A stretch of 64,000 nt of DNA from Clostridiales bacterium (GCA_012719235.1 JAAYAR010000066.1:1400-65399), one strand, 5' to 3'; numbered from the stretch's first letter, positions 32,595-61,766 are shown. Notes: generated by a model from the sequence alone, not told the origin. Numbers and translations: made by a program.

Positions 32595-33857
32595 TTGAAA
32601 ATCAGCAGGCGCGATCTGAGCAGCTCGTATTTCAGCTCGGGATTGCAGGGTTCCGCTCTTTGGAACAGGTATTTTTGTCTGGTCATACTCATCTCCAGCG
32701 CCGTAAGCTTCGGCAATTTTTTTGTGGGTGTCGCGTTTTCGTACTGGGTAGTGGATATGGGGGGGTCAAACGGCACGTTCGGCCTAATCCACGGGCTGTA
32801 CTCCTTCCTCATTATGCTCGCAAGGCCCGTCACGGGCTGGCTTGCCGATAACGGAGACCGCAGGAAGACGTTCGTATTCTCCTGCGTGGTCTATGTCTCG
32901 AGCATGATACTTATGCTTATATCGCCGTATTTCGGCCTCTTCGTAGCCCTTCGGCTCATCCAGGGCGCCGGCACCGGCGGAGCGTCGACGATCATCACGA
33001 CGAGCTCGTACGACTACATACCCCCTTCAAAAATGGATAAAGGCATAGGCTATATCTCTCTGTTCGGCAGCATAATACACGCCGTGACGCCGGCGCTGAG
33101 CGTAGGCACGTACAACACCGGGGGGCCTGCCGCGCTCGTCATCTGGTCGGCGGCCGCGACCGCTCTGGGAGTCGCGCTGTCATGGCTCGTTGTTTTCCGC
33201 ACACCGAAGGAGCCGAAGAAATTCAGTATAAAAGAGGTATTCAACCTCGGCGTGCTGTTTGAGAAGCGGTCGATCAAGCCCGCTCTTGTGATGGCGTTCT
33301 CGCTGAACCTGGGACTCGGGGCAAATACGTTCATAGTGCTCTACGGGCGTTCGCTGGGCATCGGGAACCCGGGCTGGTACTCGACGATAAGCGCGGCAGG
33401 GCTCCTCATCGTCAGACTGATCCTTGACAAGGTCAGGACGAACGAGGTCTTTCCGCGCAAGCGTATATATCTCGCGTTTGCGACTTTTGTAGCAAACCTG
33501 GTGTGCCTCGCGCTGTGTAAGAACATCTACATGTTTTTTGCGGCGGCAGTGCTCTGGTCGGTCACCTTCGGGATACTGATGCCCTCATTTACAAGCATGG
33601 TGATAAAGGCAGCTCCCGCCGACAGGCGCGGGGCCGCAACCAGCACCGCGGGCGTCTCATCCGACGTCGGAATGATCCTGGGCAGCACCCTCGGCGGTTT
33701 TATTGTGGACGGGCTCGGATATCCCGCTCTTTTCGCCGTGGTCATCGCCCCGGTCATATTGTGCTGCATAGCTTACCGGCTGTTCATCGACGGCAAATTC
33801 AAATCGTGGGAAGAGCAGGAAGTGTCAAACGCGGAAAAGACTGAGACCGCCCGATAG
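32595..33857 (+). CDS. MFS transporter
   Basis: About 12 predicted TM segments and a loop motif MLARPVTGWLADNGDRRK. GGAGGA RBS before a TTG start. Confidence 0.85.
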   Translation: MKISRRDLSSSYFSSGLQGSALWNRYFCLVILISSAVSFGNFFVGVAFSYWVVDMGGSNGTFGLIHGLYSFLIMLARPVTGWLADNGDRRKTFVFSCVVYVSSMILMLISPYFGLFVALRLIQGAGTGGASTIITTSSYDYIPPSKMDKGIGYISLFGSIIHAVTPALSVGTYNTGGPAALVIWSAAATALGVALSWLVVFRTPKEPKKFSIKEVFNLGVLFEKRSIKPALVMAFSLNLGLGANTFIVLYGRSLGIGNPGWYSTISAAGLLIVRLILDKVRTNEVFPRKRIYLAFATFVANLVCLALCKNIYMFFAAAVLWSVTFGILMPSFTSMVIKAAPADRRGAATSTAGVSSDVGMILGSTLGGFIVDGLGYPALFAVVIAPVILCCIAYRLFIDGKFKSWEEQEVSNAEKTETAR

Positions 33858-34342: not shown

Positions 34343-34366
34343 AAAAACAATGCCCGCATTGTTTTT
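34343..34366 (+). promoter_or_regulatory. Leader palindrome upstream of SBP copy 1
   Basis: AAAAACAATG-cccg-CATTGTTTTT, ending 7 nt before the AGGAGGA Shine-Dalgarno. Confidence 0.5.
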
Positions 34367-34386: not shown

Positions 34387-36090
34387 ATGAGTAAAACCCG
34401 TTCCGTATTGTGCGCCGTTTTAGCGCTTGCCATGATCTTCGCTTTTGCGGCATGCGGCAAGCCCGCCGACAATGGCGACAAGACCCCGCAGGGCACAGAA
34501 CCCGCAGGGACCCAATCACCCGGCGCATCCGGAGAACCCACCGATGCACTGCCCACTTCCCCGACGGGGACCGACATCGTGTACAACTCCACTCATCTTG
34601 TTTTCAGTATGGATGAGTTCGACAACAGACCCAGGCAGATCCAACCCGGCACCGAGCTGAATTTCCTTGCCGGCAACGACGTCCCCTCTCAGCTCCCCTG
34701 GAACTGTACGTCCGAGGGCTGGCTGTGGAGCAACGTATACGACGGTCTTCTGTACGCGTATCTCGGCGACGTGACCGATATCCGCGGCAGTATCGCAGAG
34801 AGCTGGGAGCATTCGGAAGATTATCTTACATGGACATTTAAGATCCGCGAGGGTGTAAAGTTCCATGACGGCACGATTTGCGACGCCCCCGCTATTGTGA
34901 GAGCCTGGGAGTATACACAGCAGGCTACCCCCGCAAATATCACGAACTTCCATATCGAATCATGGGAAGCCGAGGACGATCTGACCTTCGTCGTAAAGCT
35001 CTCTGCTCCCTGCGCGTATTTTGAACAGACCCTGGCCGGCATCCAGCTCGTACCCGTGAGCCCGACAGCGCTCGATATGTACGGCATCGGCGACAACAGA
35101 GCTGCCATCGGCACCGGCCCGTACTATATCTCCTCTTATACTTCGGGAACAAACATCCAGCTCAAAGCCTTTGCAGACTACTATCTCGAAGATAAGATGC
35201 CCAGCATCGAGACGATCAACTTCCCGATCATCGCAGACGAGAACACACTGACGATGGCCCTTATGAACGGCGACCTGGACGGCGCAAGACTGCGTTCCGT
35301 CGAGCAGTATTACAACCTGTCGGACAACGGATATGAAGGACAGATCGTTAAGACCATCGGCGGCGCGAACCCGCTGTGGCTCAACGCAAAGAAAATCGTC
35401 GAATTCCAGAAAAAAGAAGTCCGTATGGCCATCGACCGCTTTATTGACAACGCTGCTATCGACCAGCTCATAAACGACGGCCTGGGCATCGTCGGCGACA
35501 GCATCTGGCCTGTCGGCACCCCGGGTTATGTTCCGTATGACGGATTCTACTATGATCCCGATGAGGGCAACGAGCTTCTGGCATCTGTAGGCATGACAGC
35601 GGGCGACATCAAGTTCCACACCACGGTGCCCGATTTCGCGAAGAGCCAGTTCGAAGCGATCCAGGACCAGCTGTCCAAATCAGGCGTGGAGATCACCCTG
35701 GAGATCATTGAGGCCGAGGCAAACTTCACCTATCTGAGAAACGGAGACTGGTCCCTGCAGGTCGGTTCCACGGGCTACAGCAGCACAGGACCGTATCTCC
35801 CCTGGACCTATATTCTCAAGCCCGACGCCCTCATCAAACAGTGCTGGCAGGATGTTTACGATCCCGACCTGTATCAGAAGATGCTCGACGAGTACGATCT
35901 GATGGTCACCGCCTCCACCTGGGATGAGATGCTCGAGCACTGCAAACAGCTCACCGTCTATCAGCAGGAGGACTTCGGCGCTCTGGCGGGCATTCAGAAC
36001 CCCGGCTTTGTGGCATTCAGCAAGGAGTTCAAGGGCGTTGTCTTCACGACCGACAACATCTACCTGCAGGCATACTATATGTATGTGTAA
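34387..36090 (+). CDS. Family-5 (OppA/DppA/NikA-type) solute-binding lipoprotein, copy 1
   Basis: Lipobox LAMIFAFAAC, a Pro/Thr/Gly-rich linker, YLTWTFKIREGVKFHDGT and the shared YMYV tail. Confidence 0.85.
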   Translation: MSKTRSVLCAVLALAMIFAFAACGKPADNGDKTPQGTEPAGTQSPGASGEPTDALPTSPTGTDIVYNSTHLVFSMDEFDNRPRQIQPGTELNFLAGNDVPSQLPWNCTSEGWLWSNVYDGLLYAYLGDVTDIRGSIAESWEHSEDYLTWTFKIREGVKFHDGTICDAPAIVRAWEYTQQATPANITNFHIESWEAEDDLTFVVKLSAPCAYFEQTLAGIQLVPVSPTALDMYGIGDNRAAIGTGPYYISSYTSGTNIQLKAFADYYLEDKMPSIETINFPIIADENTLTMALMNGDLDGARLRSVEQYYNLSDNGYEGQIVKTIGGANPLWLNAKKIVEFQKKEVRMAIDRFIDNAAIDQLINDGLGIVGDSIWPVGTPGYVPYDGFYYDPDEGNELLASVGMTAGDIKFHTTVPDFAKSQFEAIQDQLSKSGVEITLEIIEAEANFTYLRNGDWSLQVGSTGYSSTGPYLPWTYILKPDALIKQCWQDVYDPDLYQKMLDEYDLMVTASTWDEMLEHCKQLTVYQQEDFGALAGIQNPGFVAFSKEFKGVVFTTDNIYLQAYYMYV

Positions 36091-39496: not shown

Positions 39497-40717
39497 GTGA
39501 AGTGCGGAGTGCACCCACAGATTAGGAAGAAATGCAGGGACTTCTGCGAGCATATGGAAGCGGTCACGGGGGTGCGCTGCGCGACCGTAGATATTGCCGA
39601 GGAGACAGTCCTTTACGGTACGGACAACAAGCCCCGGTTTTGCACCAAATGCCAGAACAAAGATTGCCAGGAGATCAGCGTCCATCTTTACGGCCTGAAC
39701 GAGGCGTGCAGATGGCAGGGAAGATATATTTACCACTGTCCGATCGGGATAATATTCTCATGCGCGGCCATACTGGACTGGGACAAGAAACTGAGCGGAG
39801 GTTTTGTTATAGGGCCGATCCTTATGGGGGATCTCCAGGATATGCTCTTTGATTTCCCGTACTCTTCGATGGAGGAGGATCTGAGCAAGCTGCCCCGCTA
39901 TTCCTCATCCGCAATCCAACACATGACCGAGGCATTTTCAATGTTCGCCAGCGCGTACAGCCAGGCCGACCACACCGGGGATCTGCTTTTCAACCAGCAC
40001 AATTACCTTAACACGCTGTACCAGGTAAAGGATCTTTACAAGAGCGAAACGGTCCCCGAGTTTCCCAAAGAGATCGAGGATCAGCTTGTCGAGCACATCC
40101 GCAAGGGCAGAAAGGCCGAATCACAGGAGCTGCTCAACGAACTGCTGGGCCACATCTATTTCGCTTCGGATTTCAAGCTGAACGAAGTTAAATCAAAGAT
40201 GCTGGACCTTATCGCCGTCCTCTCCCGCGCTGCAATCGCTTCCGGCGCGGATGTCGGCGAGATATTCCGGTTCAGTACACAGTCGATACTCGATATCGAG
40301 CATTTAAACGGCATAGACGACGTCGGCCTGTGGTGCTCCGGCATCCTGCACCGGTATATCACGTCGGCATTTGACCAGCCGCAGATCAAGCACTCCGATA
40401 TGGTTTTCAAGGTAACGGACTATATCAAAAACCACTATCGAGAGAAGCTGACTCTTGACGAGATCGCGCGGTACGTCAACCTGAGCAGTTCTTACCTGAG
40501 CAGCATCTTTAAGAAAGAGACCGGTGAAAACCTTACGTCATATATCAATCGCGTGAAGATAGAAAACTGTAAGCGTCTCCTGCGCGAGACCAACCACAGC
40601 CTGTCATATATCGCGCACGAATGCTGTTTTGACGACCAGAGCTATTTTTCGAAAGTGTTTAAGAAATATGCCGGAGAATCTCCGAAAAACTACAGGCTAA
40701 ATACCCGAAGGAGATAA
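39497..40717 (+). CDS. AraC-family transcriptional regulator with N-terminal PocR-type sensory domain
   Basis: The N-terminus is Cys-rich and PocR-like (FCTKCQNKDCQ...HCPIGIIFSCAAI). The C-terminus is a double HTH (LTLDEIARYVNLSSSYLSSIFKKETG...SLSYIAHECCFDDQSYFSKVFKK). Confidence 0.85.
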   Translation: MKCGVHPQIRKKCRDFCEHMEAVTGVRCATVDIAEETVLYGTDNKPRFCTKCQNKDCQEISVHLYGLNEACRWQGRYIYHCPIGIIFSCAAILDWDKKLSGGFVIGPILMGDLQDMLFDFPYSSMEEDLSKLPRYSSSAIQHMTEAFSMFASAYSQADHTGDLLFNQHNYLNTLYQVKDLYKSETVPEFPKEIEDQLVEHIRKGRKAESQELLNELLGHIYFASDFKLNEVKSKMLDLIAVLSRAAIASGADVGEIFRFSTQSILDIEHLNGIDDVGLWCSGILHRYITSAFDQPQIKHSDMVFKVTDYIKNHYREKLTLDEIARYVNLSSSYLSSIFKKETGENLTSYINRVKIENCKRLLRETNHSLSYIAHECCFDDQSYFSKVFKKYAGESPKNYRLNTRRR

Positions 40718-40829
40718 AAACATTCCCTTTTATCGTAAAGTATTTATAGAATTCATGTTGACTTGCGATGTAGAATAGAGTAAAGTTATCATACTTAATA
40801 TAGTTACTATAAATTAAGGAGGAACAATA

Positions 40830-41468
40830 ATGTCCATACTCGAAGAGATTTCTTCGGCACTGCAAAGAGGCAAGAGAAAAGAAGTTACCCAGCTTGTACA
40901 GCAGGCAATTGATGAGGGCCTCAGCGCCGCTAAGATCCTTGAGGAAGGCCTGCTTGCCGGGATGAGCGTCATCGGCGGCAAGTTTAAGAACAATGAAGTT
41001 TTCGTACCTGAAGTTCTCGTCGCAGCCCGCTGCATGAACGCCGGCAGCGCTCTTTTGAAGCCGCTCCTGCAAGAGGAAGGCGCAGAGCCTCTCGGAACCG
41101 TCTGCCTCGGCACGGTTAAGGGAGACCTTCATGATATCGGCAAGAACATTGTCCGCATGATGGTCGAAGGAAAAGGCATTAATGTTATCGACCTCGGAGT
41201 TGACGTTGAGTCCGAGAAATTTGTCGAGTGTGCGAAAGAGAACAACTGCAAGCTGGTTCTTTGCTCGGCTCTTCTGACCACAACAATGCCCGCCCTGAAA
41301 GAAGTCATCGAGAAGTTCGTCGAGGCCGGCTACCGCGACCAGGTCAAGATCATGGTCGGCGGCGCCCCCGTGACCCAGAGCTTCGCTGACAGCATCGGCG
41401 CCGACGCCTACACCCCCGACGCAGCTTCCTGCGCGGAGAAAGCGGCCGAGCTCCTCAGGGCCATGTAA
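40830..41468 (+). CDS. Corrinoid (B12-binding) protein of the methyltransferase-cognate type (MtaC/MtbC/MttC-like)
   Basis: 212 aa. It has an N-terminal helical cap and a Rossmann domain with DLHDIGKNIV (DxHxxG), SALLTTTM and MVGGAP. Confidence 0.9.
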   Translation: MSILEEISSALQRGKRKEVTQLVQQAIDEGLSAAKILEEGLLAGMSVIGGKFKNNEVFVPEVLVAARCMNAGSALLKPLLQEEGAEPLGTVCLGTVKGDLHDIGKNIVRMMVEGKGINVIDLGVDVESEKFVECAKENNCKLVLCSALLTTTMPALKEVIEKFVEAGYRDQVKIMVGGAPVTQSFADSIGADAYTPDAASCAEKAAELLRAM

Positions 41469-42936: not shown

Positions 42937-44313
42937 CTATATTCGCAATATGAGCGTAGCGATACGGAAGTATATCAGCAGCGTAAGGGCGTCAAGCGCG
43001 GTCGTTATGATCGGGCTCGCCATGACCGCGGGGTCGAAACCGACCTTCGCCGCCACCATGGGCAGTACGCAGCCTATGACTTTGGCCACGAGCACTACGA
43101 CCACAAGCGTTATACTGACTACGAGCGCTACGGGCACCGTCACCGAATAGTTTTGCAGGATAAGGCGGTCTACAAGCATTATCTTGCAAAAGCCCGCGAT
43201 CGCGAGGGTCACGCCGCAGAACAAGGAGACGCGGACCTCTTTCCATACGACTCTAAGAAGGTCGCTGAACTGGATCTCGTTCAACGATAGGTTTCGGATC
43301 GCTGTGACCGAGGACTGACTGCCCGAGTTGCCGCCGGTGCCCATGAGCATGGGAACAAACGACATGAGCGCGACCTGCGCGGCGAGCGCGTGCTCATAGT
43401 TTGTTATTATGAGCCCCGTAAACGTGGCGGAGATCATCAGCAGAAGCAGCCAGGGGATGCGGTTGAGCCAGAGCCTGTATACCTCCGTCTTCAGATACGG
43501 TTTCTCGGACGGCGTCATACCGGCCATTTTCTCGATGTCTTCGGTGGCCTCTTCGGTAATGACCTCAAAGGCGTCGTCAAACGTCACTATGCCGACGAGC
43601 CGGTTCTCTTTGTCCACCACCGGCATAGCGTCAAAGTTATACTTTGAGATCATCAGCGCAACTTCCTCTTTGTCCTGGGTCGTTGTAACGCTGATGACGT
43701 TTGACTCCATCTTGTCGCGGACGTACGCGTCCGGGTCGGACAGGATTATGGTGCGTATGGATATGGCGCCGATAAGCCGCTTGCTGCGGTCTGTGACATA
43801 GCAGGTGTTTATTGTCTCTTTATCTATACCGGTGCGGCGTATATGGTCCTCGGCCTCCCGGATGGTCATATCCGGCCTGAGGTCCACGTACTCCGTCGTC
43901 ATGATGCTGCCGGCCGAGTCCTCGGGGTATTTGAGTATTTCGTTGATCAGTTTGCGCGTGTCGGGGTCGGCCTGCTGCAGGATGCGCTTGACAACGTTCG
44001 CGGGCATCTCCTCGACCAGATCAACAGCATCATCAATGTACATTTCGTTGACTACAGCCTTCAGCTCGCTGTCCGAAAATCCCCGTATGAGCAGTTCCTG
44101 AAGATCGGAATCCATCTCAACGAAGGACTCGGCCGCAAGCTCTTTAGGCAGCAGCCTGAACAGCAGGGGCAGTAATTTTTCACCCAACTCGTCGAACACG
44201 TAGGCTATGTCCGAGGGGTTCATCGTTATCAGCACTTCCCGCAGCGCGGAGTATTTCTTCGCGGCGGCCAGAGCCGAGAGCGTGCTTTCAAGTGTGGCTG
44301 TTCTTTCTGTCAT
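42937..44313 (-). CDS. mgtE: Magnesium transporter MgtE
   Basis: An N-domain, tandem CBS domains (YPEDSAGSIMTTEYV..., FDAMPVVDKENRLVGIVTFDD) and five TM helices with GTGGNSGSQS. The ATG at 44313 follows GGAAAGGAGA. Confidence 0.92.
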   Translation of the reverse strand: MTERTATLESTLSALAAAKKYSALREVLITMNPSDIAYVFDELGEKLLPLLFRLLPKELAAESFVEMDSDLQELLIRGFSDSELKAVVNEMYIDDAVDLVEEMPANVVKRILQQADPDTRKLINEILKYPEDSAGSIMTTEYVDLRPDMTIREAEDHIRRTGIDKETINTCYVTDRSKRLIGAISIRTIILSDPDAYVRDKMESNVISVTTTQDKEEVALMISKYNFDAMPVVDKENRLVGIVTFDDAFEVITEEATEDIEKMAGMTPSEKPYLKTEVYRLWLNRIPWLLLLMISATFTGLIITNYEHALAAQVALMSFVPMLMGTGGNSGSQSSVTAIRNLSLNEIQFSDLLRVVWKEVRVSLFCGVTLAIAGFCKIMLVDRLILQNYSVTVPVALVVSITLVVVVLVAKVIGCVLPMVAAKVGFDPAVMASPIITTALDALTLLIYFRIATLILRI

Positions 44314-44329
44314 CGCCTTATCTCCTTTC

Positions 44330-44565
44330 CGGATTCCGATTGCGGGGCCGCCGGAACCCAATTGATTCGCGACGCGGGGCCCGCGCGCGAAAAAGCAGGC
44401 TACAGCACAGGATAATGCCGACAGCCTTATTCTTGACAGGAGCAAGGCACAATATAGGTGAGCGTCAGGCGCTTTCGGCGAACGCCGGCAAACTGCGCCC
44501 GGATCGTCTTCGGCCTATGGGTGTGCCGCTACTACTGCCAGCGTCCATCAACTTTCACCTCATTT
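44330..44565 (-). ncRNA. Candidate M-box (ykoK) Mg2+ riboswitch leader of mgtE
   Basis: The minus strand contains GAGGTGAAAG...ACGCTGGC...CACCCATAGGCCGAAGACGATCCGGGCGCAG...CCTGTGCTGTAGCC. This resembles the M-box core segments GGUGAGG / ACGCUGCUGCCC / GUCCAAAGACGCUAAUGGGUCAACAG / ACAGUGCUAAAGC. The position in front of mgtE is canonical. Compared from memory only. Confidence 0.4.
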
Positions 44566-44608: not shown

Positions 44609-44825
44609 CTACCCAACACAGCGCACCGTTTGAACTTCAGCATCGCAGGGCAATGAAATCGCGTTAGACGGCGCCTTGTGCTTCGACGTCGCCTGCTCAA
44701 ACCATCTGCCGGTGTCTCCACCGGTTCGCGGCAGCGATCCGTATCCCTTGCGGTAGCCTTGTCTACCGGGATTGTTCAATTGTCCTGCGGGACAAGCGGC
44801 TGCCGGCCGGATGCCCCGTCTTTAC
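44570..44825 (-). ncRNA. Unclassified structured RNA candidate (about 255 nt, bounded by promoter and terminator)
   Basis: There is no RBS-preceded ORF. Nested helices are visible by eye: AGACGGGGC/GCGCCGTCT, CGGCAGC/GCTGCCG, TTGTCC-cgca-GGACAA, ATCCC[GGTAG-acaagg-CTACC]gcaaGGGAT and CCGGTG-GAGA-CACCGG. Confidence 0.4.
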
Positions 44826-52129: not shown

Positions 52130-53167
52130 CTAGAAAAGGATCTGCATAGGCAGGCGCTCGATCTTCGACGCGTCGATCCCGAAAACCTCCTCGCTGTACT
52201 TGTCGATCTCTTCGCACATTACGGCATAAGCGCCCGGATAGACCGATCCGGGACCTCCCTGGGTGATACAGGGGATGAAATATTTGCTGCCGCAGCGGTC
52301 GCATGCGCTGCGGACAGCCTTACGGCAATCCTCGCGCGTCCATCCGTCGAAGTCCACTTCCTTGTTGTCGATATCTCCCATAAAACTGATCTTGCCGCCG
52401 TATTTTTTAATCAGTTCAGGGACATTGTTCGATTTCATGCAGCCCTGCCAGATGTCTATGCCCATATCGATCATATAAGGTACCAGCGGTGCCGCGTAGC
52501 TGTCGGCGTGGTGTATCACAAGTTCGACGCCGTGGTCGTGATAATAACCGTAGATCTGCTTATACGGTTCCAGGAAGAATTCCGCAAACATCTCGGGCCT
52601 CAGGAACGTGCTCTTTTCTCCGCCCCAGTCGTCATGATGGAAAATGGCATCCGGGTGGAGATGTGAGCAAATGCCCTCCGCAAGCTCGAGTTCCCAATCG
52701 GTGAGATATTTTATAAGGTCGTGCATCTCCGTGGGGTTGGTTATGTAATATACGAGCGCTTCTTCAATTGAACACAGGTGATGGGTCTGCTCAAAAAGCC
52801 CGGGAGCGATAAAGGTCGCCTTATAGGCCTGGCTGCCGTCGACAGCATCATACTGCTGCTTGAACATGGCCCATTCCTCATCGGAAAACTTCAGAGGCGG
52901 CGCGTGGACGTAATCCCGCCAGTTTTCGATATCCTTTACGACGATCTTGTCCGGGGTATGTACAGGGAAAGCGCCGGGTGTTCCGGCCGGGAAGGAGTTT
53001 GTGACGCCCCATGCGTTTACTACATTCATCTGCCCCACTGAGAGCAGTGCGTTGGAGTGCGCGATGTACGGATGAAACATCAGCATGACGGCCTCATACT
53101 GGTTCACGAACCTCTCCGGTTTGCCGCCCCTGATAGTCTCCTGCATGTTTTGTTTTGCGGTCAGCAT
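52130..53167 (-). CDS. URO-D superfamily protein, MtaA/CmuA-like (copy 2)
   Basis: 345 aa from the ATG at 53167, after GGAGGAGA. It has the URO-D fold pattern (FVNQYEAVMLMF..., IFHHDDWGGEKSTFLRPEMF, ISFMGDIDN). Confidence 0.75.
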   Translation of the reverse strand: MLTAKQNMQETIRGGKPERFVNQYEAVMLMFHPYIAHSNALLSVGQMNVVNAWGVTNSFPAGTPGAFPVHTPDKIVVKDIENWRDYVHAPPLKFSDEEWAMFKQQYDAVDGSQAYKATFIAPGLFEQTHHLCSIEEALVYYITNPTEMHDLIKYLTDWELELAEGICSHLHPDAIFHHDDWGGEKSTFLRPEMFAEFFLEPYKQIYGYYHDHGVELVIHHADSYAAPLVPYMIDMGIDIWQGCMKSNNVPELIKKYGGKISFMGDIDNKEVDFDGWTREDCRKAVRSACDRCGSKYFIPCITQGGPGSVYPGAYAVMCEEIDKYSEEVFGIDASKIERLPMQILF

Positions 53168-53408
53168 TTCTTTCTCCTCCTTTTGTGTATTATCCTGGTT
53201 ACCATTATATGGCCGGGAGAGAGCTTTTGCAATGCTAATATGACTTTCCGTGCAGTCCGGGCACAAATACACATGCGTCAAATGCCCGGAAAATCGCCGG
53301 ATTCTGTGCAGGCTGAAAAATCACCGCTAATTCGTGTGCAGCGCATGAGTGTCCAATGCGCACAAATTATGAAGTTGAAATTTAGGCATAAAGCGAATGC
53401 TGAAAGAC

Positions 53409-53437
53409 TTGTAATAATAATGACATATTATTATACT
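53409..53437 (+). promoter_or_regulatory. Promoter of SBP copy 2
   Basis: TTGTAA, 17 nt, TATACT. The same architecture precedes copies 3 and 4. Confidence 0.5.
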
Positions 53438-53509
53438 AATAACGTAATAAATTCTACATTATTACAAAGGTTCATTATTGATGTCGCGGCCGCGACGACC
53501 ACCTAAGCG

Positions 53510-53533
53510 TTTACAACGGATCTCTGTTGTAAA
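53510..53533 (+). promoter_or_regulatory. Leader palindrome upstream of SBP copy 2
   Basis: TTTACAAC-ggatctct-GTTGTAAA, ending 8 nt before AGGAGGA. Confidence 0.5.
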
Positions 53534-53553
53534 AAAAATCAGGAGGAAGAACA

Positions 53554-55260
53554 ATGAAGAAAGTCCGCAGTATACTATGTATTCTTATTGCCGTAGCAAT
53601 GGTGCTTGTTTTCGGCGCCTGCGCAAAGGACAGCGGCAAAGAGGGTACGCCAGATGCCACAGCCAAACCCACGGAACAGACCCCGGCCGATACCGATACG
53701 CCGGACTCGACGGAAGAACCCGGTGATCCGGGTGAGCCGACCGAGAAGGTCGAGAGCAAAGACACCTACATCATCAACACCGTAGAAGACTACTACAACA
53801 GGCCCAAACAGATCCAGAAGGGTACGGAAGTGACCCTGATCTGCACGGACGTTCCGTCGCAGCTCCCCTGGAACGCTGTACCCGAGGGATGGCTCACTAC
53901 GAATATTTACGAAGGTCTCCTCTATCTGCACCTCGGCAGCGTCGATGACATCCGCGGCCTGATAGCCGAGAGCTGGGAACACAGCGACGACTACCTGACC
54001 TGGACGTTCCATATCCGCGACGGCGTTAAGTTCTGGGACGGCACAGTCTGTGACGCGGCCGCAGTCGTAAAGTCATGGGACTTCTACAATGAAGCTTCAC
54101 CCGCTTCATTCACGAATATCAAGATGGAGTCCTGGGAAGCTACGGGCGATATGGAGGTCACCGTTAAGCTGAGCGCGCCCTGCTCATACTTTGAGGCCTC
54201 GATCACCCGCTTGTTCATCGTGAGCCCGACAGCTCTTCAGACTTACGGCATCAACGACAACAAAGCGGCTGTCGGCACCGGCCCGTACATTCTTGACTCC
54301 TACACCTCCGGCGTGGGCTTTGTTCTGAAGGCAAACCCGGATTACTACTTCGAAGAAAGAACGCCTCACATCGAGACGATCAATTTCAATATCATCAAAG
54401 ACGAGAACACAAAGATGATGGCGCTGCTCAACGGCGATATCGACGGCTACCAGTTCTCGGCGGTGGAGAGCTTCTACAATCTGAAAGACAACGGCTACGA
54501 CGGCACGATAATCCAGAACTACGGCAACGCCAACCCGTTCTTCTTCAACGCGAAGACCGTGCCCGAGTTCGAGATCTTCGAAGTGCGCCAGGCGTTCGTT
54601 CGCTTCATTGACCTTGAGGCTATAAACATGCTGATGTACGACGATATGGGCCTCATTCAAAAAAGCCTCTGGACCGTGGGTTCCACAGGTGATGTCCCGT
54701 TCGACGGCTTCTATTATGACAAGGAAGAGGGCCTCGAGCTGATGGCGTCCGCCGGCGTAGACCCGGCCAGCATGGCCTTCACGGCCAAGATCATCGACTC
54801 GAGCGGAGACCTGTTCGTGACGATCGCGGGCCAGCTCGAGAAAGTCGGCATCAAAATGGATATCGAACCCCTTGAGCCCGAAGCGAACTTCACATTCCTT
54901 ATGAACGGCGACTGGACGATCACCGCGGGCAACTCAGGCTACGGCGACGCGTCCCCCTACGGCCCGTGGACCTATATCCTCAGGCCCGAGCACCTCATCA
55001 AAGAGGTCTGGTCGGATATCTATAACCCCGAGCTGTACCAGCAGATGCTCGACACTTATGACAAGATGATCACCGCTCTTACCTGGGACGAGATGCTCGT
55101 GAACTGCCGCCAGCTGACGACGTACCTGCAGGAGGACTACGGCGCGATGAACGGCATCCAGGCCCCCTGGTTCGCTGCCTTCGACAAGAGCCTCAAGTGC
55201 CTCGTTTTCTCGACAGAGAACCACTTCCAGCAGCTCTTCTACATGTATAAAGATGTATAA
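53554..55260 (+). CDS. Family-5 solute-binding lipoprotein, copy 2
   Basis: Lipobox VLVFGAC, a Pro/Thr/Asp/Glu linker, YLTWTFHIRDGVKFWDGT, ANPDYYFEE and the YMYKDV tail. Confidence 0.88.
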   Translation: MKKVRSILCILIAVAMVLVFGACAKDSGKEGTPDATAKPTEQTPADTDTPDSTEEPGDPGEPTEKVESKDTYIINTVEDYYNRPKQIQKGTEVTLICTDVPSQLPWNAVPEGWLTTNIYEGLLYLHLGSVDDIRGLIAESWEHSDDYLTWTFHIRDGVKFWDGTVCDAAAVVKSWDFYNEASPASFTNIKMESWEATGDMEVTVKLSAPCSYFEASITRLFIVSPTALQTYGINDNKAAVGTGPYILDSYTSGVGFVLKANPDYYFEERTPHIETINFNIIKDENTKMMALLNGDIDGYQFSAVESFYNLKDNGYDGTIIQNYGNANPFFFNAKTVPEFEIFEVRQAFVRFIDLEAINMLMYDDMGLIQKSLWTVGSTGDVPFDGFYYDKEEGLELMASAGVDPASMAFTAKIIDSSGDLFVTIAGQLEKVGIKMDIEPLEPEANFTFLMNGDWTITAGNSGYGDASPYGPWTYILRPEHLIKEVWSDIYNPELYQQMLDTYDKMITALTWDEMLVNCRQLTTYLQEDYGAMNGIQAPWFAAFDKSLKCLVFSTENHFQQLFYMYKDV

Positions 55261-55298
55261 TAATGTATAAAAGGCGATCCTTTACAGATGCCTGACCG

Positions 55299-55340
55299 AA
55301 CTGCCCGGAGGAAACTTCCGGGCAGTTTCTTTTCTTTTTG
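55299..55340 (+). terminator. Intrinsic terminator after SBP copy 2
   Basis: CTGCCCGGA-loop-TCCGGGCAG followed by TTTCTTTTCTTTTT. Confidence 0.75.
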
Positions 55341-55558
55341 TTATATGAGCGTTCGATCCGGGTCGGGCAGAGATCGGGGACGAGGAGTGAAGCGGCCGGT
55401 CATAATCGCCTTACACGGACAGCCTTTGAAAACCGATCACATATTATGCCAGTAATTTTGTCTGTTATGCACGATACAATGATTTATTTTCACAATAAAC
55501 GGTGTGATATGCACAGAAATCACCACAATAATTCGTCATATTGAGATGACATTATATC

Positions 55559-55587
55559 TTGTGAAAATATTATGAAGAGTATATACT
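55559..55587 (+). promoter_or_regulatory. Promoter of SBP copy 3
   Basis: TTGTGA, 17 nt, TATACT. Confidence 0.5.
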
Positions 55588-55667
55588 TATTTTGTAATTA
55601 TTAGGAACTGTATAAAGCGCTCTGCGGGCGGCTGGAGGCCGCATTATTGATGCTCCTGAAACTGTAC

Positions 55668-55690
55668 TTTACAATGAATATCATTGTAAA
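55668..55690 (+). promoter_or_regulatory. Leader palindrome upstream of SBP copy 3
   Basis: TTTACAATGA-ata-TCATTGTAAA, with perfect 10-bp arms. It ends 12 nt before the AGGAGG Shine-Dalgarno (TAGGAGGTAG). Confidence 0.55.
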
Positions 55691-55715
55691 AATATATGTC
55701 ATAGGAGGTAGTTCA

Positions 55716-57437
55716 ATGAAAAAAGTCCGCTCGTTACTGTGTATCCTACTGGCGCTGTCAATGGTGCTGCTCTTCTGCGCATGCGCCAAGGACGGCGGCA
55801 CGGAAGATACACCCGACACCACGGGCAAACCCGCGACCGCCGCTCCTACGGAAAAACCCGAGGAGAAACCGGAGGAGAAGCCGGGAGAAGAGCCCGGAGA
55901 GACCCCGGCGGGACCGGTCGAAGAGGTCGTGAGCAAGGACACATACGTCATCCACACCGTAGAGGACTATTATAACAGGCCCAAACAGATCCAGAAAGGC
56001 ACGGAGGTCACCCTGATCTGTACAGACGTCCCGTCGCACGTGCCCTGGAACGCAGTATCAGAAGGATGGCTCACAACGAATATTTATGAAAGCCTCCTGT
56101 ACCTGCACCTCGGCGACACAAGCGACATCCGCGGCCAGATCGCGGAGAGCTGGAAATACAGCGACGACTACCTGACCTGGACGTTCCAGATCCGCGACGG
56201 CATAAAGTTCACCGACGGCACGGACTGTGACGCGGCCGCAGTCAAAAAAGCCTGGGACTTCTACAATGAAGCGTCGCCCGCTTCGTTCACAAACCTGAAT
56301 ATCGTGTCCTGGGAAGCGACCGGCGATATGGAGCTCACGGTAAAACTGAAGGCTCCCTGTTCATATTTTGAGACGGCCATGACTCGTCTGTTCGTCCTGA
56401 GCCCCACAGCTCTTGAGCTGAACGGCATCAACGACAACAAGTCAGCGATCGGTACCGGCCCGTACATGATCGACGACTACACCTCGGGCGTGGGCTTCGT
56501 TCTTAAGGCAAATCCGGATTACTATTTCGAAGAGAAAATGCCCAACATCGAGACGATCAAATTCAGCATCATCAAAGACGAGAACACAAAGATGATGGCG
56601 CTGCTCAACGGCGACATCGACGGCTACCAGTTCTCGTCGGTGGAGAGCTACTACAACCTGAAAGACAACGGCTATGACGGCACGATCATCCAGAACTACG
56701 GCAACGCCAACCCGTTCTTCTTCAACGCGAAGACCGTGCCCGAGTTCGAGATCTTCGAAGTACGCCAGGCGTTCGTTCGCTTCATTGACCTTGAGGCTAT
56801 AAACAGACTGATGTACGACGACATGGGCCTCATTCAAAATAGCCTCTGGACCGTGGGTTCCTCGGGCGACGTTCCGTTTGACGGCTTCTATTACGACCCG
56901 GATGAGGGCCTTGAGCTGATGGCGTCAGTCGGCGTCGACCCGAAGAGCATGTCCTTCGCGGCCAAGATCATCGACTCGAGCGGAGACCTGTTCGTGACGA
57001 TCGCCGGGCAGCTTGCAAAAGTCGGTGTCACAATGGAAGTTGAGCCGCTCGAGCCCGAGGCGAACTTCACGTTCCTGATGAACGGCGACTGGACGATCAC
57101 GGCGGGCAACTCCGGTTACGCCGATTCAAGCCCGTACGGCCCGTGGACATTTATCCTCAGACCTGAGCACCTCATCAAAGAGGTCTGGTCGGATATCTAT
57201 GACCCCGAGCTGTACCAGAAGATGCTCGACACATATGACAAGATGGTCAGCGCTCTGACATGGGACGAGATGCTCGTAAACTGCCGCCAGCTGACGACCT
57301 ACCTGCAGGAGGACTACGGCGCGATGAACGGCATTCAGGCCCCCTGGTTCGCTGCCTTTGACAAGAGCCTCAAGTGCCTCGTATTCGCTTCGGAGAACCA
57401 CTTCCAGCAGCTCTTCTACATGTACAAAGAAGTCTAA
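55716..57437 (+). CDS. Family-5 solute-binding lipoprotein, copy 3
   Basis: The ATG at 55716 follows AGGAGG. Lipobox VLLFCAC and a (EKPE)n-like linker. It is the closest paralog of copy 2. The upstream extension to 55647 is rejected. Confidence 0.88.
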   Translation: MKKVRSLLCILLALSMVLLFCACAKDGGTEDTPDTTGKPATAAPTEKPEEKPEEKPGEEPGETPAGPVEEVVSKDTYVIHTVEDYYNRPKQIQKGTEVTLICTDVPSHVPWNAVSEGWLTTNIYESLLYLHLGDTSDIRGQIAESWKYSDDYLTWTFQIRDGIKFTDGTDCDAAAVKKAWDFYNEASPASFTNLNIVSWEATGDMELTVKLKAPCSYFETAMTRLFVLSPTALELNGINDNKSAIGTGPYMIDDYTSGVGFVLKANPDYYFEEKMPNIETIKFSIIKDENTKMMALLNGDIDGYQFSSVESYYNLKDNGYDGTIIQNYGNANPFFFNAKTVPEFEIFEVRQAFVRFIDLEAINRLMYDDMGLIQNSLWTVGSSGDVPFDGFYYDPDEGLELMASVGVDPKSMSFAAKIIDSSGDLFVTIAGQLAKVGVTMEVEPLEPEANFTFLMNGDWTITAGNSGYADSSPYGPWTFILRPEHLIKEVWSDIYDPELYQKMLDTYDKMVSALTWDEMLVNCRQLTTYLQEDYGAMNGIQAPWFAAFDKSLKCLVFASENHFQQLFYMYKEV

Positions 57438-57467
57438 AGTGTGATCCATAACAGCTGCCTGACAGAG

Positions 57468-57497
57468 CTGCCCGGAGGAAACTCCGGGCAGTTTTTA
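57468..57497 (+). terminator. Intrinsic terminator after SBP copy 3
   Basis: CTGCCCGGAG-gaaa-CTCCGGGCAG-TTTTT. Confidence 0.8.
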
Positions 57498-57672
57498 TGT
57501 GCAGATCCTGAGCCGGGTGAGGGAGGAGGTGCGGCCGGTCGTCGACGGGCTTATCTCGTTTTGCGGTACATATGAAATAATGCACTAATATTGCGCGGAT
57601 GATTATGGTTAATTAGTATAAAATGCACAATAGTGGCTTTTATATTTTGTCATGTTGCGGGACTATAAACAC

Positions 57673-57701
57673 TTGTGAAAATAAAATGACGGAGATATAC
57701 T
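57673..57701 (+). promoter_or_regulatory. Promoter of SBP copy 4
   Basis: TTGTGA, 17 nt, TATACT. Confidence 0.5.
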
Positions 57702-57794
57702 CGAACAGTAATTATTTCTTTTAGTTTTATCAGCGATAGCACTTGGGTCAGACCGGCAGAAGGGGTTTAGATATTACTCTCCCGGCAACTGTGC

Positions 57795-57818
57795 TTTACA
57801 ATGAACCCTCATTGTAAA
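57795..57818 (+). promoter_or_regulatory. Leader palindrome upstream of SBP copy 4
   Basis: TTTACAATGA-accc-TCATTGTAAA, with perfect 10-bp arms. Confidence 0.55.
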
Positions 57819-57843
57819 AATATAAGTCATTGGAGGAAGATCA

Positions 57844-59562
57844 ATGAAAAAAGCCCGCTCGATATTGTGTATCCTTCTAGCAATGGCAATGACCCTTCTT
57901 TTCTGCGCTTGCGCCAAAGACTCTGACGGAGAGACCCCCGATACCACGAGCAAACCAACACAGAGCGCTCCTCCGACGGCAAAACCGGAAGAGAAGCCCA
58001 CGGAGACACCAGAGAGCAAACCCGGGGAGACACCGGCGGGACCGGCCGAAAAGGTCGAGAGCAAGGACACGTTTGTGATCAGCACTGTCGAAGACTATTA
58101 CAACAGGCCGGCCGGGATACAGAAGGGCACTGAAGTGACCATGATCTGCAGCGACGTCCCCTCTCACGTGCCGTGGGGCGCGGTATCGGAGGGCTGGCTG
58201 ACTATGAATATCTACGAGCAGCTTATCTATACCCATATGGGCAATGTCAACGACATCCGTGGCCAGATAGCGGAGAGCTGGGAACACAGCGCCGACTACC
58301 TGACCTGGACGTTCCGGATCCGCGAAGGAATCAGATTCTGGGACGGGACCGTCTGTGACGCCGCCGCGATAGCCAAATGCTGGGATTATTATTACGAAGC
58401 CTCCCCCGCCTCGTTCAATAACTCAAATCTTATATCCTGGGAAGCGACAGGCGAAATGGAGCTCACATTAAAACTGAGCGCTCCGTGCCCTTATTTTGAA
58501 ATTGCTCTGACCAGACTTTCCATACTGAGCCCGACCGCTCTTGAGACCTACGGCATCAACGACAACAGAGCCGCGATCGGCACGGGACCGTACATGATCC
58601 ATTCCTACACCTCGGGAGTGGGCTTTGTTCTGAAGGCCAACCCCGACTATTACTTTGAAGAAAAGATGCCGCACATCGAGACGTTCAATTTCAACATCAT
58701 CAAAGATGACAACACAAGACTGCTGGCGCTGCTGAACGGCGATATAGACGGCTACCAGTTCTCCGCGGTCGAGACATTCTACAATCTGCAGGAGAGCGGC
58801 TATGACGGCACGCTGATCCGGAACTACGGCAACGCCAACCCGTTCTTCTTCAACGCGAAGACTGTCCCGGAGTTTGAGATCTTTGAAGTCCGCAAAGCGA
58901 TGAACCGTTTCATAGACCTCGACGCAATCAACCAGCTGATGTATGACGACATGGGTCTCAAACAGAAAAGCTTGTGGACCGTCGGCTCTTCGGGGGACGT
59001 TCCTTTCGACGGATTCTATTTCGACAGGGACGAGGGGCTTGAACTGATGGCGTCGGTCGGTGTCGACCCGAAGAGTATGTCCTTTTCAGCCAATATCATT
59101 GACTCCAGCGGTGATCTCTTTGTAACGGTGGCGGGACAGCTTGAGAAGGTCGGCATCAAAATGGAAGTCGTGCCCCTGGAACCTCAGGCAAACTTCACGT
59201 TCCTGAAAAACGGGGATTGGACTATCACCGCCGGCAATTCGGGCTATGCCGATTCTTCCCCCTACGGCCCGTGGACGTATATCCTCAGGCCCGAGCACCT
59301 CATCAAGGAGGTCTGGTCGGATTTATATAACCCCGAGCTGTACCAGCAGATGCTCGATACATATGACAAGATGATCACCGCTCTTACCTGGGACGAGATG
59401 CTCGTAAACTGCCGCCGGCTGACAACGTACCTGCAGGAGGACTTCGGCGCGATGAACGGAATACAGCCGCCCTGGTTCGCGGCTTTCGACAAGAGCCTCA
59501 AGTGCCTCGTATTCGCCTCCGAGAACCATTTCCATCTGCTGTATTACATGTACAAGGCATAG
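57844..59562 (+). CDS. Family-5 solute-binding lipoprotein, copy 4
   Basis: Lipobox TLLFCAC, a Pro/Thr/Glu/Lys linker, YLTWTFRIREGIRFWDGT and the YMYKA tail. Confidence 0.88.
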   Translation: MKKARSILCILLAMAMTLLFCACAKDSDGETPDTTSKPTQSAPPTAKPEEKPTETPESKPGETPAGPAEKVESKDTFVISTVEDYYNRPAGIQKGTEVTMICSDVPSHVPWGAVSEGWLTMNIYEQLIYTHMGNVNDIRGQIAESWEHSADYLTWTFRIREGIRFWDGTVCDAAAIAKCWDYYYEASPASFNNSNLISWEATGEMELTLKLSAPCPYFEIALTRLSILSPTALETYGINDNRAAIGTGPYMIHSYTSGVGFVLKANPDYYFEEKMPHIETFNFNIIKDDNTRLLALLNGDIDGYQFSAVETFYNLQESGYDGTLIRNYGNANPFFFNAKTVPEFEIFEVRKAMNRFIDLDAINQLMYDDMGLKQKSLWTVGSSGDVPFDGFYFDRDEGLELMASVGVDPKSMSFSANIIDSSGDLFVTVAGQLEKVGIKMEVVPLEPQANFTFLKNGDWTITAGNSGYADSSPYGPWTYILRPEHLIKEVWSDLYNPELYQQMLDTYDKMITALTWDEMLVNCRRLTTYLQEDFGAMNGIQPPWFAAFDKSLKCLVFASENHFHLLYYMYKA

Positions 59563-59585
59563 CTATAACGCCGATCCATCGAAAA

Positions 59586-59614
59586 CTGCCCGGGGGAAAC
59601 CCCGGGCAGTTTTT
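59586..59614 (+). terminator. Intrinsic terminator after SBP copy 4
   Basis: CTGCCCGGGG-gaaa-CCCCGGGCAG-TTTTT. Confidence 0.8.
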
Positions 59615-59795
59615 GCGCGGAAAGAAACGCCTGAGATATAGTGACAGGGCCGTACTCATGAAAAATAAAGTACCGGCCCTTCAATATTGCCGTTATATGT
59701 AAGCGGGTCTGCGGAACCGGCAGCATCTGTACCAAAGACTTTGATATAAACAAACCGGTTGTCGAAAAGACATGAATTATGTTAACCGATAACGC

Positions 59796-59824
59796 TTGTA
59801 AATTATACCAGAACAGCTTATATT
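59796..59824 (+). promoter_or_regulatory. Promoter of SBP copy 5 (short leader, no palindrome)
   Basis: TTGTAA, 17 nt, TATATT, about 45 nt upstream of the ATG. Confidence 0.45.
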
Positions 59825-59868
59825 AAAAAGGGAATAAATAACAATTAATAGTTGAAGGAGGAGAACAG

Positions 59869-61542
59869 ATGAAGACAGCGCGCTCCATATTGTGCATTCT
59901 TCTTGTCGCGGCCACGGTGCTTGTTTTTTGTGCGTGCAGCAGAAACGGCGAGGAGGATGAGGCCCCCGGCACCACCGGCAATCCGGCGGAGCAGACCGCG
60001 GCGGCAAAGCCCGAAGCTGAACCGGCAGAGAAGGTCGAAAGCAGAGCAGACTATGTTATCAGCAATGTGGACGAATACCTGAACAGGCCGCGAGAGCTGC
60101 AGCCCGGCAGCAAAGTAACTCTGATCTGCTCGGACGTGCCTTCGCAGCTCCCGTGGAACTGTACGCCCGAGGGTTGGCTGACATACAACTGTTATGAAGG
60201 CCTGTTGTACATCCATAACGGAGTGGTGACAGACATCCGCGGTTGTGTCGCGGAGAGCTGGGAACACAGCGAGGATTACCTCACCTGGACTTTCCGGATC
60301 CGCGATGGTGTCAAATTCGCCGACGGCACCGTATGCGACGCGCCCGCCATAGCGAAATCATACGACTATTACAATGAAGTGAGCCCCGCAACCTTCAGCG
60401 GTCTGAACATGAAATCATGGGAAGCGACAAGTGAGAAGGAGCTTATTGTGCATATGTCCGGGCCCTGCGCATATCTGGAATCCGCGCTGCCGAGGCTGTA
60501 CATAGTCAGTCCGACCGCGATGGAGACGTACGGAGTCAATGACAATAAAGCCGCCGTCGGAACTGCGCCATACTACATAGAATCTTATACATCGGGGGTT
60601 GGGTTTACATTCAAAGCAAACCCGTATTACAATTTTGAAGAGAAGATGCCCTGCATCGAAACTGTCAGACTCAACATCATCAATGACGAGAACACGAGGC
60701 TCATGGCGCTGCTCAACGGCGATATTGACGGTTTCCAGTTCTCGTCAGTTGAAACATACTATAACCTCAAAGACAACGGCTTCGACGGTACTTTTATACA
60801 GTCATACGGAAACGCGGACCCGTTCTGGCTGAACGCCAGGAAAGTCCCGGAGTTCCGGATCTTTGAGGTGCGAAAAGCAATAAACCGTTTCCTGGACATG
60901 AACGCCGTCAACACGCTTATGTTCGATGATTTGGGTCTGGTACAGGACAGCCTCTGGTGCGTGGGCTCTTCGGGCTCAGTGCCGTCTGACCAGTTCTATT
61001 ACGATGAGGCCGAAGGTCTGGAGCTTATGGCCGCCGCGGGTGTAGACCCGAACAGCATGTCCTTCGCAGCTAAAATAATAGATTCCGGCGCAGACCTGTT
61101 TGTAACGATCGCAGGACAGCTTGGCAAAGTAGGCATTACGATGGAGATCGAACCTCTGGAACCTGAGGCGAACTTCACGTTCCTGATGAACGGCGAGTGG
61201 TCTATCACTTGCGGGAACTCCGGCTACGGCGACACATACCCGTATCTGCCCTGGACATTCATCCTCAAACCCGAGCACCTCATCAAGGAGTGCTGGCAGG
61301 ATATATATGATCCCGGGCTCTATCAAAAGATGCTCGATGAGTTCGATGCGATGGTAAATTCTCTTACCTGGGACGATATGCTCAAACACTGCACCCAGCT
61401 TACTAAGTATTGTCAAGACGATTTCGGCGCGTTCCCGGGTATCCAGAGGCCCTGGTTTGCAGCGTACAACAAGGACCTGAAGAGCCTGGTATTCTCTACG
61501 GAGAACCACTACCTGCTTCTGTACTACATGTACAAAGCATAG
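59869..61542 (+). CDS. Family-5 solute-binding lipoprotein, copy 5
   Basis: Lipobox VLVFCAC, a shorter linker, YLTWTFRIRDGVKFADGT and the YMYKA tail. It is the most diverged of the tandem set. Confidence 0.88.
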   Translation: MKTARSILCILLVAATVLVFCACSRNGEEDEAPGTTGNPAEQTAAAKPEAEPAEKVESRADYVISNVDEYLNRPRELQPGSKVTLICSDVPSQLPWNCTPEGWLTYNCYEGLLYIHNGVVTDIRGCVAESWEHSEDYLTWTFRIRDGVKFADGTVCDAPAIAKSYDYYNEVSPATFSGLNMKSWEATSEKELIVHMSGPCAYLESALPRLYIVSPTAMETYGVNDNKAAVGTAPYYIESYTSGVGFTFKANPYYNFEEKMPCIETVRLNIINDENTRLMALLNGDIDGFQFSSVETYYNLKDNGFDGTFIQSYGNADPFWLNARKVPEFRIFEVRKAINRFLDMNAVNTLMFDDLGLVQDSLWCVGSSGSVPSDQFYYDEAEGLELMAAAGVDPNSMSFAAKIIDSGADLFVTIAGQLGKVGITMEIEPLEPEANFTFLMNGEWSITCGNSGYGDTYPYLPWTFILKPEHLIKECWQDIYDPGLYQKMLDEFDAMVNSLTWDDMLKHCTQLTKYCQDDFGAFPGIQRPWFAAYNKDLKSLVFSTENHYLLLYYMYKA

Positions 61543-61568
61543 CAAGAGATCGGAGTATATAAAGCATT

Positions 61569-61603
61569 CGGAGCCGTCCGGGCATCAATACCGGGCGGCT
61601 CCG
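61569..61603 (+). terminator. Hairpin after SBP copy 5 (no U-tract)
   Basis: CGGAGCCGTCCGG-loop-CCGGGCGGCTCCG. Confidence 0.4.
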
Positions 61604-61646
61604 ATCATTACAGGCTGCTCTTCTTTACAGGCTTCATCGCCGAGGA

Positions 61647-61696
61647 GGGGCTGCATCGGGTCCGGTCCGGACCGAATGCAGCCCCCGTATCTTTTT
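61647..61696 (+). terminator. Second hairpin, with a U-tract
   Basis: GGGGCTGCAT...ATGCAGCCCC, then cgtatcTTTTT. Confidence 0.5.
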
Positions 61697-61766
61697 CGGT
61701 TAAGTTGTTCGGACCAGAGCTCCCTTGACGGAAGCGGGCGGGATCTGCGCGCGTCCGGTCCTCTCG

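Follow-up and report, generated by a model that had tools for sequence, protein, structure and literature searches.

Genes and cassettes of the array

The window analysed here is a stretch of 64,000 nucleotides from a Clostridiales bacterium (GCA_012719235.1, JAAYAR010000066.1:1400-65399) that carries, on its plus strand, five intact open reading frames (ORFs) for family-5 solute-binding protein (SBP) lipoproteins. The solo gene, 17 kb from the others and of a different, older subclade, was named A (34387-36090; 567 amino acids (aa); PF00496 E-value 2e-58). The four tandem genes were named B (53554-55260; 568 aa; 5e-56), C (55716-57437; 573 aa; 2e-55), D (57844-59562; 572 aa; 5e-52) and E (59869-61542; 557 aa; 3e-46), E being the most diverged in the array. 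All five products matched SBP_bac_5 (PF00496) at 158-198 bits against a gathering cutoff of 32.4 (E-values 3e-46 to 2e-58). A signal peptide and a lipobox conforming to the Gram-positive lipoprotein pattern [LIVMFWSTAG]2-[LIVMFYSTAGCQ]-[AGS]-C were present in every copy, with the cysteine at position 23 (AFAAC, VFGAC, LFCAC, LFCAC and VFCAC, the second being that of B), and by this prediction A-E appear to be lipid-anchored at Cys23. The lipobox was followed in each case by a linker of 31-46 aa consisting to 82-98% of P, E, T, A, K, G and D (rich in Pro, Glu, Thr, Ala and Lys), the cluster-C SBP body and a shared tail (YMYKDV, YMYKEV, YMYKA, YMYKA and YMYV). The initial annotation had described the genes in these terms, and on each of these points it held. 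The NCBI entries (NLT39685.1, NLT39705.1 and NLT39708.1) carry generic names only. An identical array layout was found in independent ENA and JGI metagenome assemblies, so the layout is not an assembly artefact.

The tandem genes are separated by spacers of 272-455 bp with a GC content of 0.39-0.43, compared with 0.55 for the whole window. A promoter-like site, TTGT[AG]A-N17-TATA[CT]T (identified by consensus match only), precedes 4/4 tandem copies on the plus strand: B at 53409-53437 (TTGTAA-17-TATACT; leader of about 110 nt), C at 55559-55587 and D at 57673-57701 (both TTGTGA-17-TATACT), and E at 59796-59824 (TTGTAA-17-TATATT; short leader of about 40 nt). A strong hairpin terminator lies 3' of 5/5 genes. 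Those after B (55298-55328; 14-bp stem plus T-run), C (57466-57496) and D (59582-59614), all on the plus strand, are nearly identical, with the sequence CTGCCCGG(A/G)GG-AAAC-CC(T/C)CCGGGCAG followed by a T-run. The initial annotation had already noted this near-identity. E is followed by a different, GC-rich hairpin (61568-61604, plus strand). A second hairpin downstream of E (61647-61685) lies between convergent genes. Each cassette of approximately 2.1 kb, comprising promoter-like site, structured leader, coding sequence and terminator, thus appears from its sequence to be its own transcription unit, much as had been proposed.

A 10-bp stem-loop is located on the plus strand 12-20 nt upstream of the Shine-Dalgarno (SD) sequence of B (53510-53533), C (55668-55690), D (57795-57818) and A (34343-34366). 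It is also found before the related copy at locus L020 (about 6085-6110) and is absent before E. The core is ACAAYG...CRTTGT, and its pairing is kept by compensatory and G·U changes (ACAACGG/CTGTTGT in B; AAAAACAATG/CATTGTTTTT in A). Minimum-free-energy folding of A, B and C places the SD sequence in a pairing with CU-rich sequence that lies 5' of the hairpin. RNAalifold recovered the hairpin from the leaders, with copy A misaligned. An Rfam scan for riboswitches ahead of the SBP genes, at gathering cutoffs and at E<=5, returned nothing relevant, and the stem-loop itself had no Rfam match. These features suggest a leader with a role in translation or stability.

An imperfect palindrome, GTGT/GTAT-N5-7-GCAC ('...AATGCACA'), was observed at 53330-53365, 55495-55520 and 57610-57635. 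In B, C and D it is conserved at a distance of about 50-70 nt ahead of the -35 element, and it could be the site of a shared regulator. Two further readings of the spacers were dropped. Spacer-encoded pheromone peptides were discarded because only two small ORFs were present (19-24 aa), both unconserved; for invertible promoters or phase variation, neither flanking inverted repeats nor invertons were found.

Divergence and gene conversion among the copies

Amino acid identity and synonymous divergence of the body (dS) were 83% and 0.47 for B-C, 78% and about 1.05 for B-D, and 80% and about 1.1 for C-D. E was 66-67% identical to B-D at a body dS of about 2, and A was 51-53% identical to B-E at a body dS of 1.4-2.3. 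The ratio of nonsynonymous to synonymous divergence (dN/dS) among B-E was 0.10-0.16 in the body and 0.2-0.4 in the linkers, which diverge fast and vary in length. A dS of 0.5-2 combined with a dN/dS of 0.10-0.16 identifies old duplicates, each individually kept by purifying selection. Amino acid differences among B-E affected 206 positions, 41% of the body, with three or more states at 44 positions. The initial annotation had contrasted divergence concentrated at the binding cleft with divergence spread uniformly, the latter expected of an ordinary transporter expansion. Along the linear sequence, B-E divergence was even (window-count variance test, p=0.80).

B and C share a 118-nt tract with a single mismatch (54511-54628 in B and 56688-56805 in C, both plus strand), which lies within a wider synonymous-poor zone. 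Similarity among the copies is mosaic: B-C identity reached 96-99% at alignment positions of about 870-1080, B-D identity reached 94-97% at about 1440-1530, and in the linker C is closer to D. Synonymous-site scans gave 2/50 differences for B-C against a background of 25% (alignment positions 990-1154; p=0.003) and 5/50 for B-D against a background of 37% (1452-1625; p=0.0004). The pairwise homoplasy index (PHI) test gave p=0.04 with four sequences and p=0.001 with five, and run-length tests gave p=0.001-0.007; the p values of scans, PHI and run-length tests are all uncorrected for multiple pairs. Short gene-conversion tracts between neighbouring copies are therefore real, as had been suggested from the 118-nt tract. 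The accompanying description of the set as concertedly evolving was too strong. The array is not homogenised: overall dS is not low, ranging from 0.47 (B-C) to about 2 (E), and the copies diverge largely independently.

Family assignment, clade and gene neighbourhoods

No transporter partner is encoded with the array. Every substantial ORF of the window was scanned against Pfam, and none matched ABC_tran or BPD_transp; tblastn with OppB, OppC, OppD and OppF queries gave no window match at E<1e-5, in agreement with the original observation that the 64 kb hold no ATP-binding cassette (ABC) permease or ATPase gene. The window corresponds to positions 2265-66264 of a 128.9-kb ENA contig, and no ABC genes were found in the 2.2 kb before it (to the contig start) or in the 7.5 kb after it. 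The array is flanked by minus-strand genes, on one side URO-D2, a URO-D-family gene divergent from the array (52130-53167; PF01208), and on the other an HtrA-like protease. Given these opposite-strand neighbours and the ABC-free flanks, co-transcription with a transporter, including one just outside the window, is excluded. URO-D2 gave no match when searched against the PDB. A major facilitator superfamily (MFS) transporter gene (32595-33857, plus strand; PF07690) lies just upstream of copy A and is separated from it by a strong terminator. Its product is 47-54% identical to MFS proteins encoded near family SBPs at loci L009 and L011, and its top NCBIfam match is CntE-like (75 bits against a cutoff of 235).

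An AlphaFold2 model of copy B had a mean predicted local distance difference test score (pLDDT) of 88.3 and a predicted TM-score (pTM) of 0.82, with the tether disordered. Foldseek aligned it to NikA, GsiB, DppA, AgaA and SatA with probability 1.0 and target-normalised TM-scores of 0.74-0.85. Structure and PDB profile matches were to small-ligand cluster-C SBPs at 17-23% identity (NikA, GsiB, AgaA, AapF, DppA, CntA and SatA), and those to OppA were weaker than those to the Nik/Gsi/Dpp group. No NCBIfam equivalog came near its cutoff for A-E: DppA scored 19-40 bits against 1005, OppA 29-46 against 947, NikA 82-104 against 393 and CntA 48-69 against 800. To compare ligand residues, Escherichia coli DppA and NikA were aligned to the family profile (DppA in precursor numbering). 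DppA R383 is not conserved, the aligned residue being Ala in B-E and Thr in A. DppA D436 is likewise replaced by Gly, Ala or Ser; an Asp lies one position off in B-E only, where the alignment is uncertain by one residue, and the surrounding motif varies between copies (GDAS, ADSS, ADSS, GDTY and SSTG). NikA R97 aligns to Ala, R137 lies in an insertion that the family lacks, and the H416 region could not be aligned. Judged by fold, profile and sequence, A-E are bona fide binding proteins that are not canonical dipeptide or nickel binders, and the ligand is probably neither a canonical dipeptide nor a Ni-chelate.

An exhaustive HMMER scan of 1.84 billion representatives returned 59 clusters at E<=1e-30, and a word-based search returned about 55 clusters with identities of 30-100%; where names were given, in a few cases, they were generic and came from Oscillospiraceae/Clostridiales metagenome-assembled genomes (MAGs). 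The clade is small and rare. A metagenome scan yielded 7 loci. The same species was not found among GTDB representative genomes, in which one related MAG matched (Oscillospiraceae RGIG5710, from sheep gut; locus L011). Thirteen tight-clade loci were examined: the array, A, L006, L007, L009, L011, L012, L014, L017 (with L030 and L031), L020, L021 (equal to L026), L027 and L029. An Opp-type permease in the same operon was present at 0/13, so the orphan status first noted at this locus extends across the clade. Tandem arrays occur elsewhere: L006 has four copies and L011 at least two. For three organisms, the copies from one organism group together in a neighbour-joining tree, which indicates that the tandem expansions arose separately; copy A groups with L020, L021 and L017. 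A 5'-truncated family copy without signal peptide (452 aa; L021 9947-11305, L026 5901-7259) shares an overlap with the end of a cation-efflux (CDF) gene; it is probably a paralog undergoing decay within the same genome and points to turnover in the family. Distant relatives P0049 and P0053 (31-36% identity) lie in canonical SBP-OppB-OppC-OppD-OppF operons, and the orphan clade is therefore probably descended from a standard ABC-importer SBP.

Two gene types recur beside clade members. In L011, closely spaced MFS, URO-D, SBP and SBP genes follow one another in this order on a single strand, and the URO-D gene, directly upstream of the tandem SBPs, is 52% identical to URO-D2 (tblastn). A further URO-D gene lies beside the L020 copy. 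A candidate transport partner is encoded on L009, contig k141_326070. Window and contig share a sample (ERZ27268617), and their tetranucleotide correlation was 0.97, equal to the within-window level; L020 and L021 scored 0.955 against the window. On composition and the shared sample only it is probable that the contig belongs to the same genome. L009 carries another family paralog and, 6 kb away, an operon with the order MFS, old yellow enzyme (OYE), OppB, OppC, OppD, OppF and an SBP of 549 aa. The MFS of this operon is 53-54% identical to that adjoining copy A, and its OYE-type reductase is about 32% identical to that of the window. The L009 OppBCDF would be a reasonable candidate for a shared partner.

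Other loci showed varied surroundings. The four tandem members in L006 (1-11693) precede, on the same strand, genes for Peripla_BP_2, FecCD, ABC_tran, CobT and CobU, which form a cluster of the corrinoid-salvage type; this organism differs from that of the window (GC 0.50; tetranucleotide-frequency r 0.49). A corrinoid or tetrapyrrole ligand was considered on account of the URO-D neighbours, the btuF/FecCD-cobT-cobU genes after the L006 array and the NikA-like matches, and was dropped, these leads being anecdotal and without conserved binding residues or repeated context. In L014 (4503-19890) the family SBP lies between a 1461-aa C39-peptidase ABC exporter, in which ABC_tran matches two stretches, and a pair of giant ORFs (1359 and 1394 aa, no Pfam match), with a LytS-type histidine kinase upstream. 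In L017 (11919-15629) and L031 (2054-5764) two tandem 590-aa UGSC-family proteins follow the family SBP and are themselves followed by a DAPG/phloretin-hydrolase-family gene, a ferredoxin, a fumarate-reductase-like flavoprotein, a short-chain dehydrogenase/reductase and a 3-hydroxyacyl-CoA dehydrogenase. The P0049 OppBCDF operon (L024, 2804-17623) is set among CGDB, AP_endonuc_2, GFO_IDH_MocA and SnoaL genes typical of C-glycoside deglycosylation, which suggests that this distant family-5 system has a non-peptide substrate.

Further features were recorded in the window itself. An apparent minus-strand operon at 15707-22584 encodes a URO-D/MtaA-like protein, a U32 (UbiU/TrhP-like) protein, a glycyl-radical enzyme and its activase. 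The glycyl-radical enzyme scored 985 bits against a cutoff of 1000 for the (2S)-3-sulfopropanediol dehydratase HpfG and is possibly a dehydratase of sulfonates or diols whose partners are unusual. At 23420-31228 (minus strand) lie two paralogous MGH1-like glycoside hydrolases, a 593-aa protein without family match and an OYE/Pyr_redox flavoenzyme, whose top NCBIfam matches, bilirubin reductase (long form) and BaiCD, were below cutoff; a similar gene set is also present on L009. A PocR-AraC regulator gene is followed, within 39497-41468, by that for a 212-aa corrinoid protein (B12-binding plus B12-binding_2) masked by a longer opposite-strand ORF, and this corrinoid protein together with the two URO-D-family genes suggests corrinoid-dependent methyltransferase systems. 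An M-box (Mg2+) riboswitch (44615-44777, minus strand; 81 bits, E 4e-16) lies upstream of an mgtE gene (42937-44445).

Taken with the other loci, several catabolic gene types recur. Glycyl-radical enzymes and activases are encoded in L017, L030 and L020 as well as in the window, at about 15 kb from copy A. The others are OYE-type ene-reductases, the DAPG/phloretin-hydrolase-family gene of L031 and the C-glycoside deglycosidase-type genes around P0049. With the URO-D/MtaA-like methyltransferases and the corrinoid protein, these surroundings are a weak pointer to aromatic compounds that are plant-derived or methylated, or to small organic substrates of another kind, and not to peptides. A published account of MtaA-homologue gene clusters mentions no link to an SBP or MFS transporter (PMC10418091).

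Proposed function and comparison with known systems

The array is best explained as a lineage-specific tandem expansion of an orphan cluster-C (Opp/Dpp/Nik-type) SBP lipoprotein clade in what would be an anaerobic-digester Clostridiales/Oscillospiraceae-like bacterium. Each product would be anchored at Cys23, with the Pro/Glu/Thr-rich tether keeping the body off the membrane. Each copy would bind a different small ligand for delivery to an ABC translocator of the Opp/Dpp type whose genes lie elsewhere in the genome; the MFS-OYE-OppBCDF-SBP operon on k141_326070 is the candidate. Use of a shared translocator is the reading towards which we lean, with moderate confidence. It is the more parsimonious because distant relatives lie in SBP-OppBCDF operons and a contig with OppBCDF probably belongs to the same genome, and copies long kept under purifying selection with occasional conversion fit non-redundant binding specificities. 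The initial annotation had preferred a receptor or scavenging repertoire over an uptake system; no positive evidence for that preference emerged, and the operons of the distant relatives and the OppBCDF contig speak for uptake.

Several points weigh against a shared translocator. The L009 OppB and OppC are 36-39% identical to the permeases of the distant relatives, no closer than to E. coli DppBC/NikBC, and the operon has its own, unrelated SBP. The placement of L009 in the same genome draws on composition and a shared sample, the tie between the array SBPs and any particular translocator is one that we infer, and the ligand class is read from gene context only. All tight-clade members examined are orphans, and their conserved neighbours are MFS and URO-D-family genes, apparently in one operon in L011; this combination could point to a non-ABC role. 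The clade would then have left ABC transport for a surface role with a non-ABC partner (the neighbouring MFS transporter or a sensor), or would concentrate substrate for a URO-D-family catabolic pathway. SBP-dependent secondary transporters of the TRAP and TTT families and SBP-activated sensor kinases do exist (PMC11452294, PMC11113362), and the same-strand gene order of L011, the MFS homologues adjoining copy A and near the L009 paralog, the URO-D genes beside the array and the L020 copy, and the lack of a same-operon permease at any of the 13 loci are all consistent with such a role. In the window itself, however, a strong terminator parts the MFS gene from copy A, and URO-D-family genes are frequent in the genome (two in 64 kb and one more in L020), so that adjacency may partly reflect chance or inherited synteny. 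The distant relatives are moreover canonical ABC SBPs. No SBP-dependent MFS transporter is known, which also counts against this role, and we regard departure from ABC transport as improbable. Its stricter form, in which the clade is permanently uncoupled from ABC importers and works with the neighbouring MFS transporter and URO-D-family enzyme as a surface capture system or receptor for methylated or plant-derived aromatics, seems more doubtful still; if true, it would be the first case of an SBP-assisted MFS transporter or of a family-5 SBP working outside ABC transport, and the tandem expansion would have diversified the substrate range.

Binding without transport, by peptide-pheromone or signal receptors like PrgZ/TraC, or by adhesins or sequestering proteins like moonlighting OppA, was also considered. 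The member in L014 directly follows a C39-peptidase ABC exporter (PCAT type) near a histidine kinase, the long tether would put the domain out in the wall, and AapF, the top PDB profile match, binds a signalling molecule. L014 is the only such context, adhesin-like repeats are absent and strong purifying selection over the whole body is typical of a ligand-binding fold; we consider this explanation unlikely. PrgZ-type receptors still use Opp permeases, and it thus largely merges with the shared-translocator model. The even spread of B-E differences along the sequence and the birth-and-death turnover seen in the truncated L021/L026 copy would also fit functionally redundant copies, whether as gene-dosage amplification or as decaying paralogs whose specificity has not diversified. 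Redundancy is, in our estimate, a similarly poor prospect, given the long selective maintenance of each copy recorded in dS and dN/dS, the 41% of body positions that differ (44 with three or more states) and the variation of the motif aligned with DppA D436. Conversion tracts and fast-diverging linkers of variable length might further be taken for a concerted surface-variation system in which conversion shuffles exposed lipoproteins against phage or host. Such a system is very improbable: the conversion tracts are few and short, a promoter-like site stands at every copy in place of a silent-cassette architecture, promoters are not flanked by inverted repeats or invertons, and dN/dS stays well under 1, the linker included.

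The shared-translocator model has close precedents. Borrelia burgdorferi encodes five paralogous family-5 lipoprotein SBPs, OppA1-5, which serve one OppBCDF and differ in specificity and regulation (PMC5736914, PMC7822543). As in the window, the five paralogs are partly in tandem; in Borrelia three of them are, and the rest are found elsewhere under promoters of their own. There, however, oppA1-3 are directly upstream of the permease genes, whereas here at least 10 kb to either side of the array are free of permease genes and the candidate partner is on another contig; the window SBPs are also only about 18% identical in sequence to the solved OppA and DppA structures. Pseudomonas aeruginosa DppA1-A5 comprise several Dpp-type SBPs with distinct substrate profiles for one DppBCDF (PMC4206461, PMC12728205), but these are Gram-negative periplasmic proteins with established di- and tripeptide ligands, and the window proteins lack conserved DppA R383 and D436. 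E. coli MppA is an orphan SBP that uses OppBCDF (PMC3173086), and pneumococcal AliA and AliB are used with AmiCDEF (PMC11192437). Like the window genes, these orphan family-5 SBPs are encoded apart from the permease; unlike them, they are single genes with known peptide ligands and not tandem arrays. The best sequence and structure matches overall were small-ligand cluster-C SBPs, namely NikA (E. coli or Brucella), CntA and opine-type SBPs, a set that includes AgaA, MoaA, AapF and GsiB. The Staphylococcus aureus cnt locus resembles the window in pairing a family-5 SBP (CntA) with an MFS exporter (CntE), the top NCBIfam match of the window MFS. The window differs from NikA and CntA systems in its NCBIfam scores far below cutoff, the unconserved NikA R97 and R137 and the absence of metallophore-biosynthesis genes nearby.

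Multiple or orphan family-5 SBPs that share one translocator are already well documented, and the window holds an uncharacterised subfamily of the same kind. Its unusual features are the orphan state of every locus examined, the recurrence of tandem expansion and the conserved synteny with MFS and URO-D-family genes. The substrate range of ABC importers is determined by orphan and multiple SBPs. A clade found only as orphans, with repeated expansions in Oscillospiraceae of anaerobic digesters and the gut, indicates a class of substrate that matters to these poorly known organisms. The links to MFS, URO-D-family and catabolic genes provide concrete candidates for the choice of ligands, and should the non-ABC reading prove true, the known roles of family-5 SBPs would be extended.

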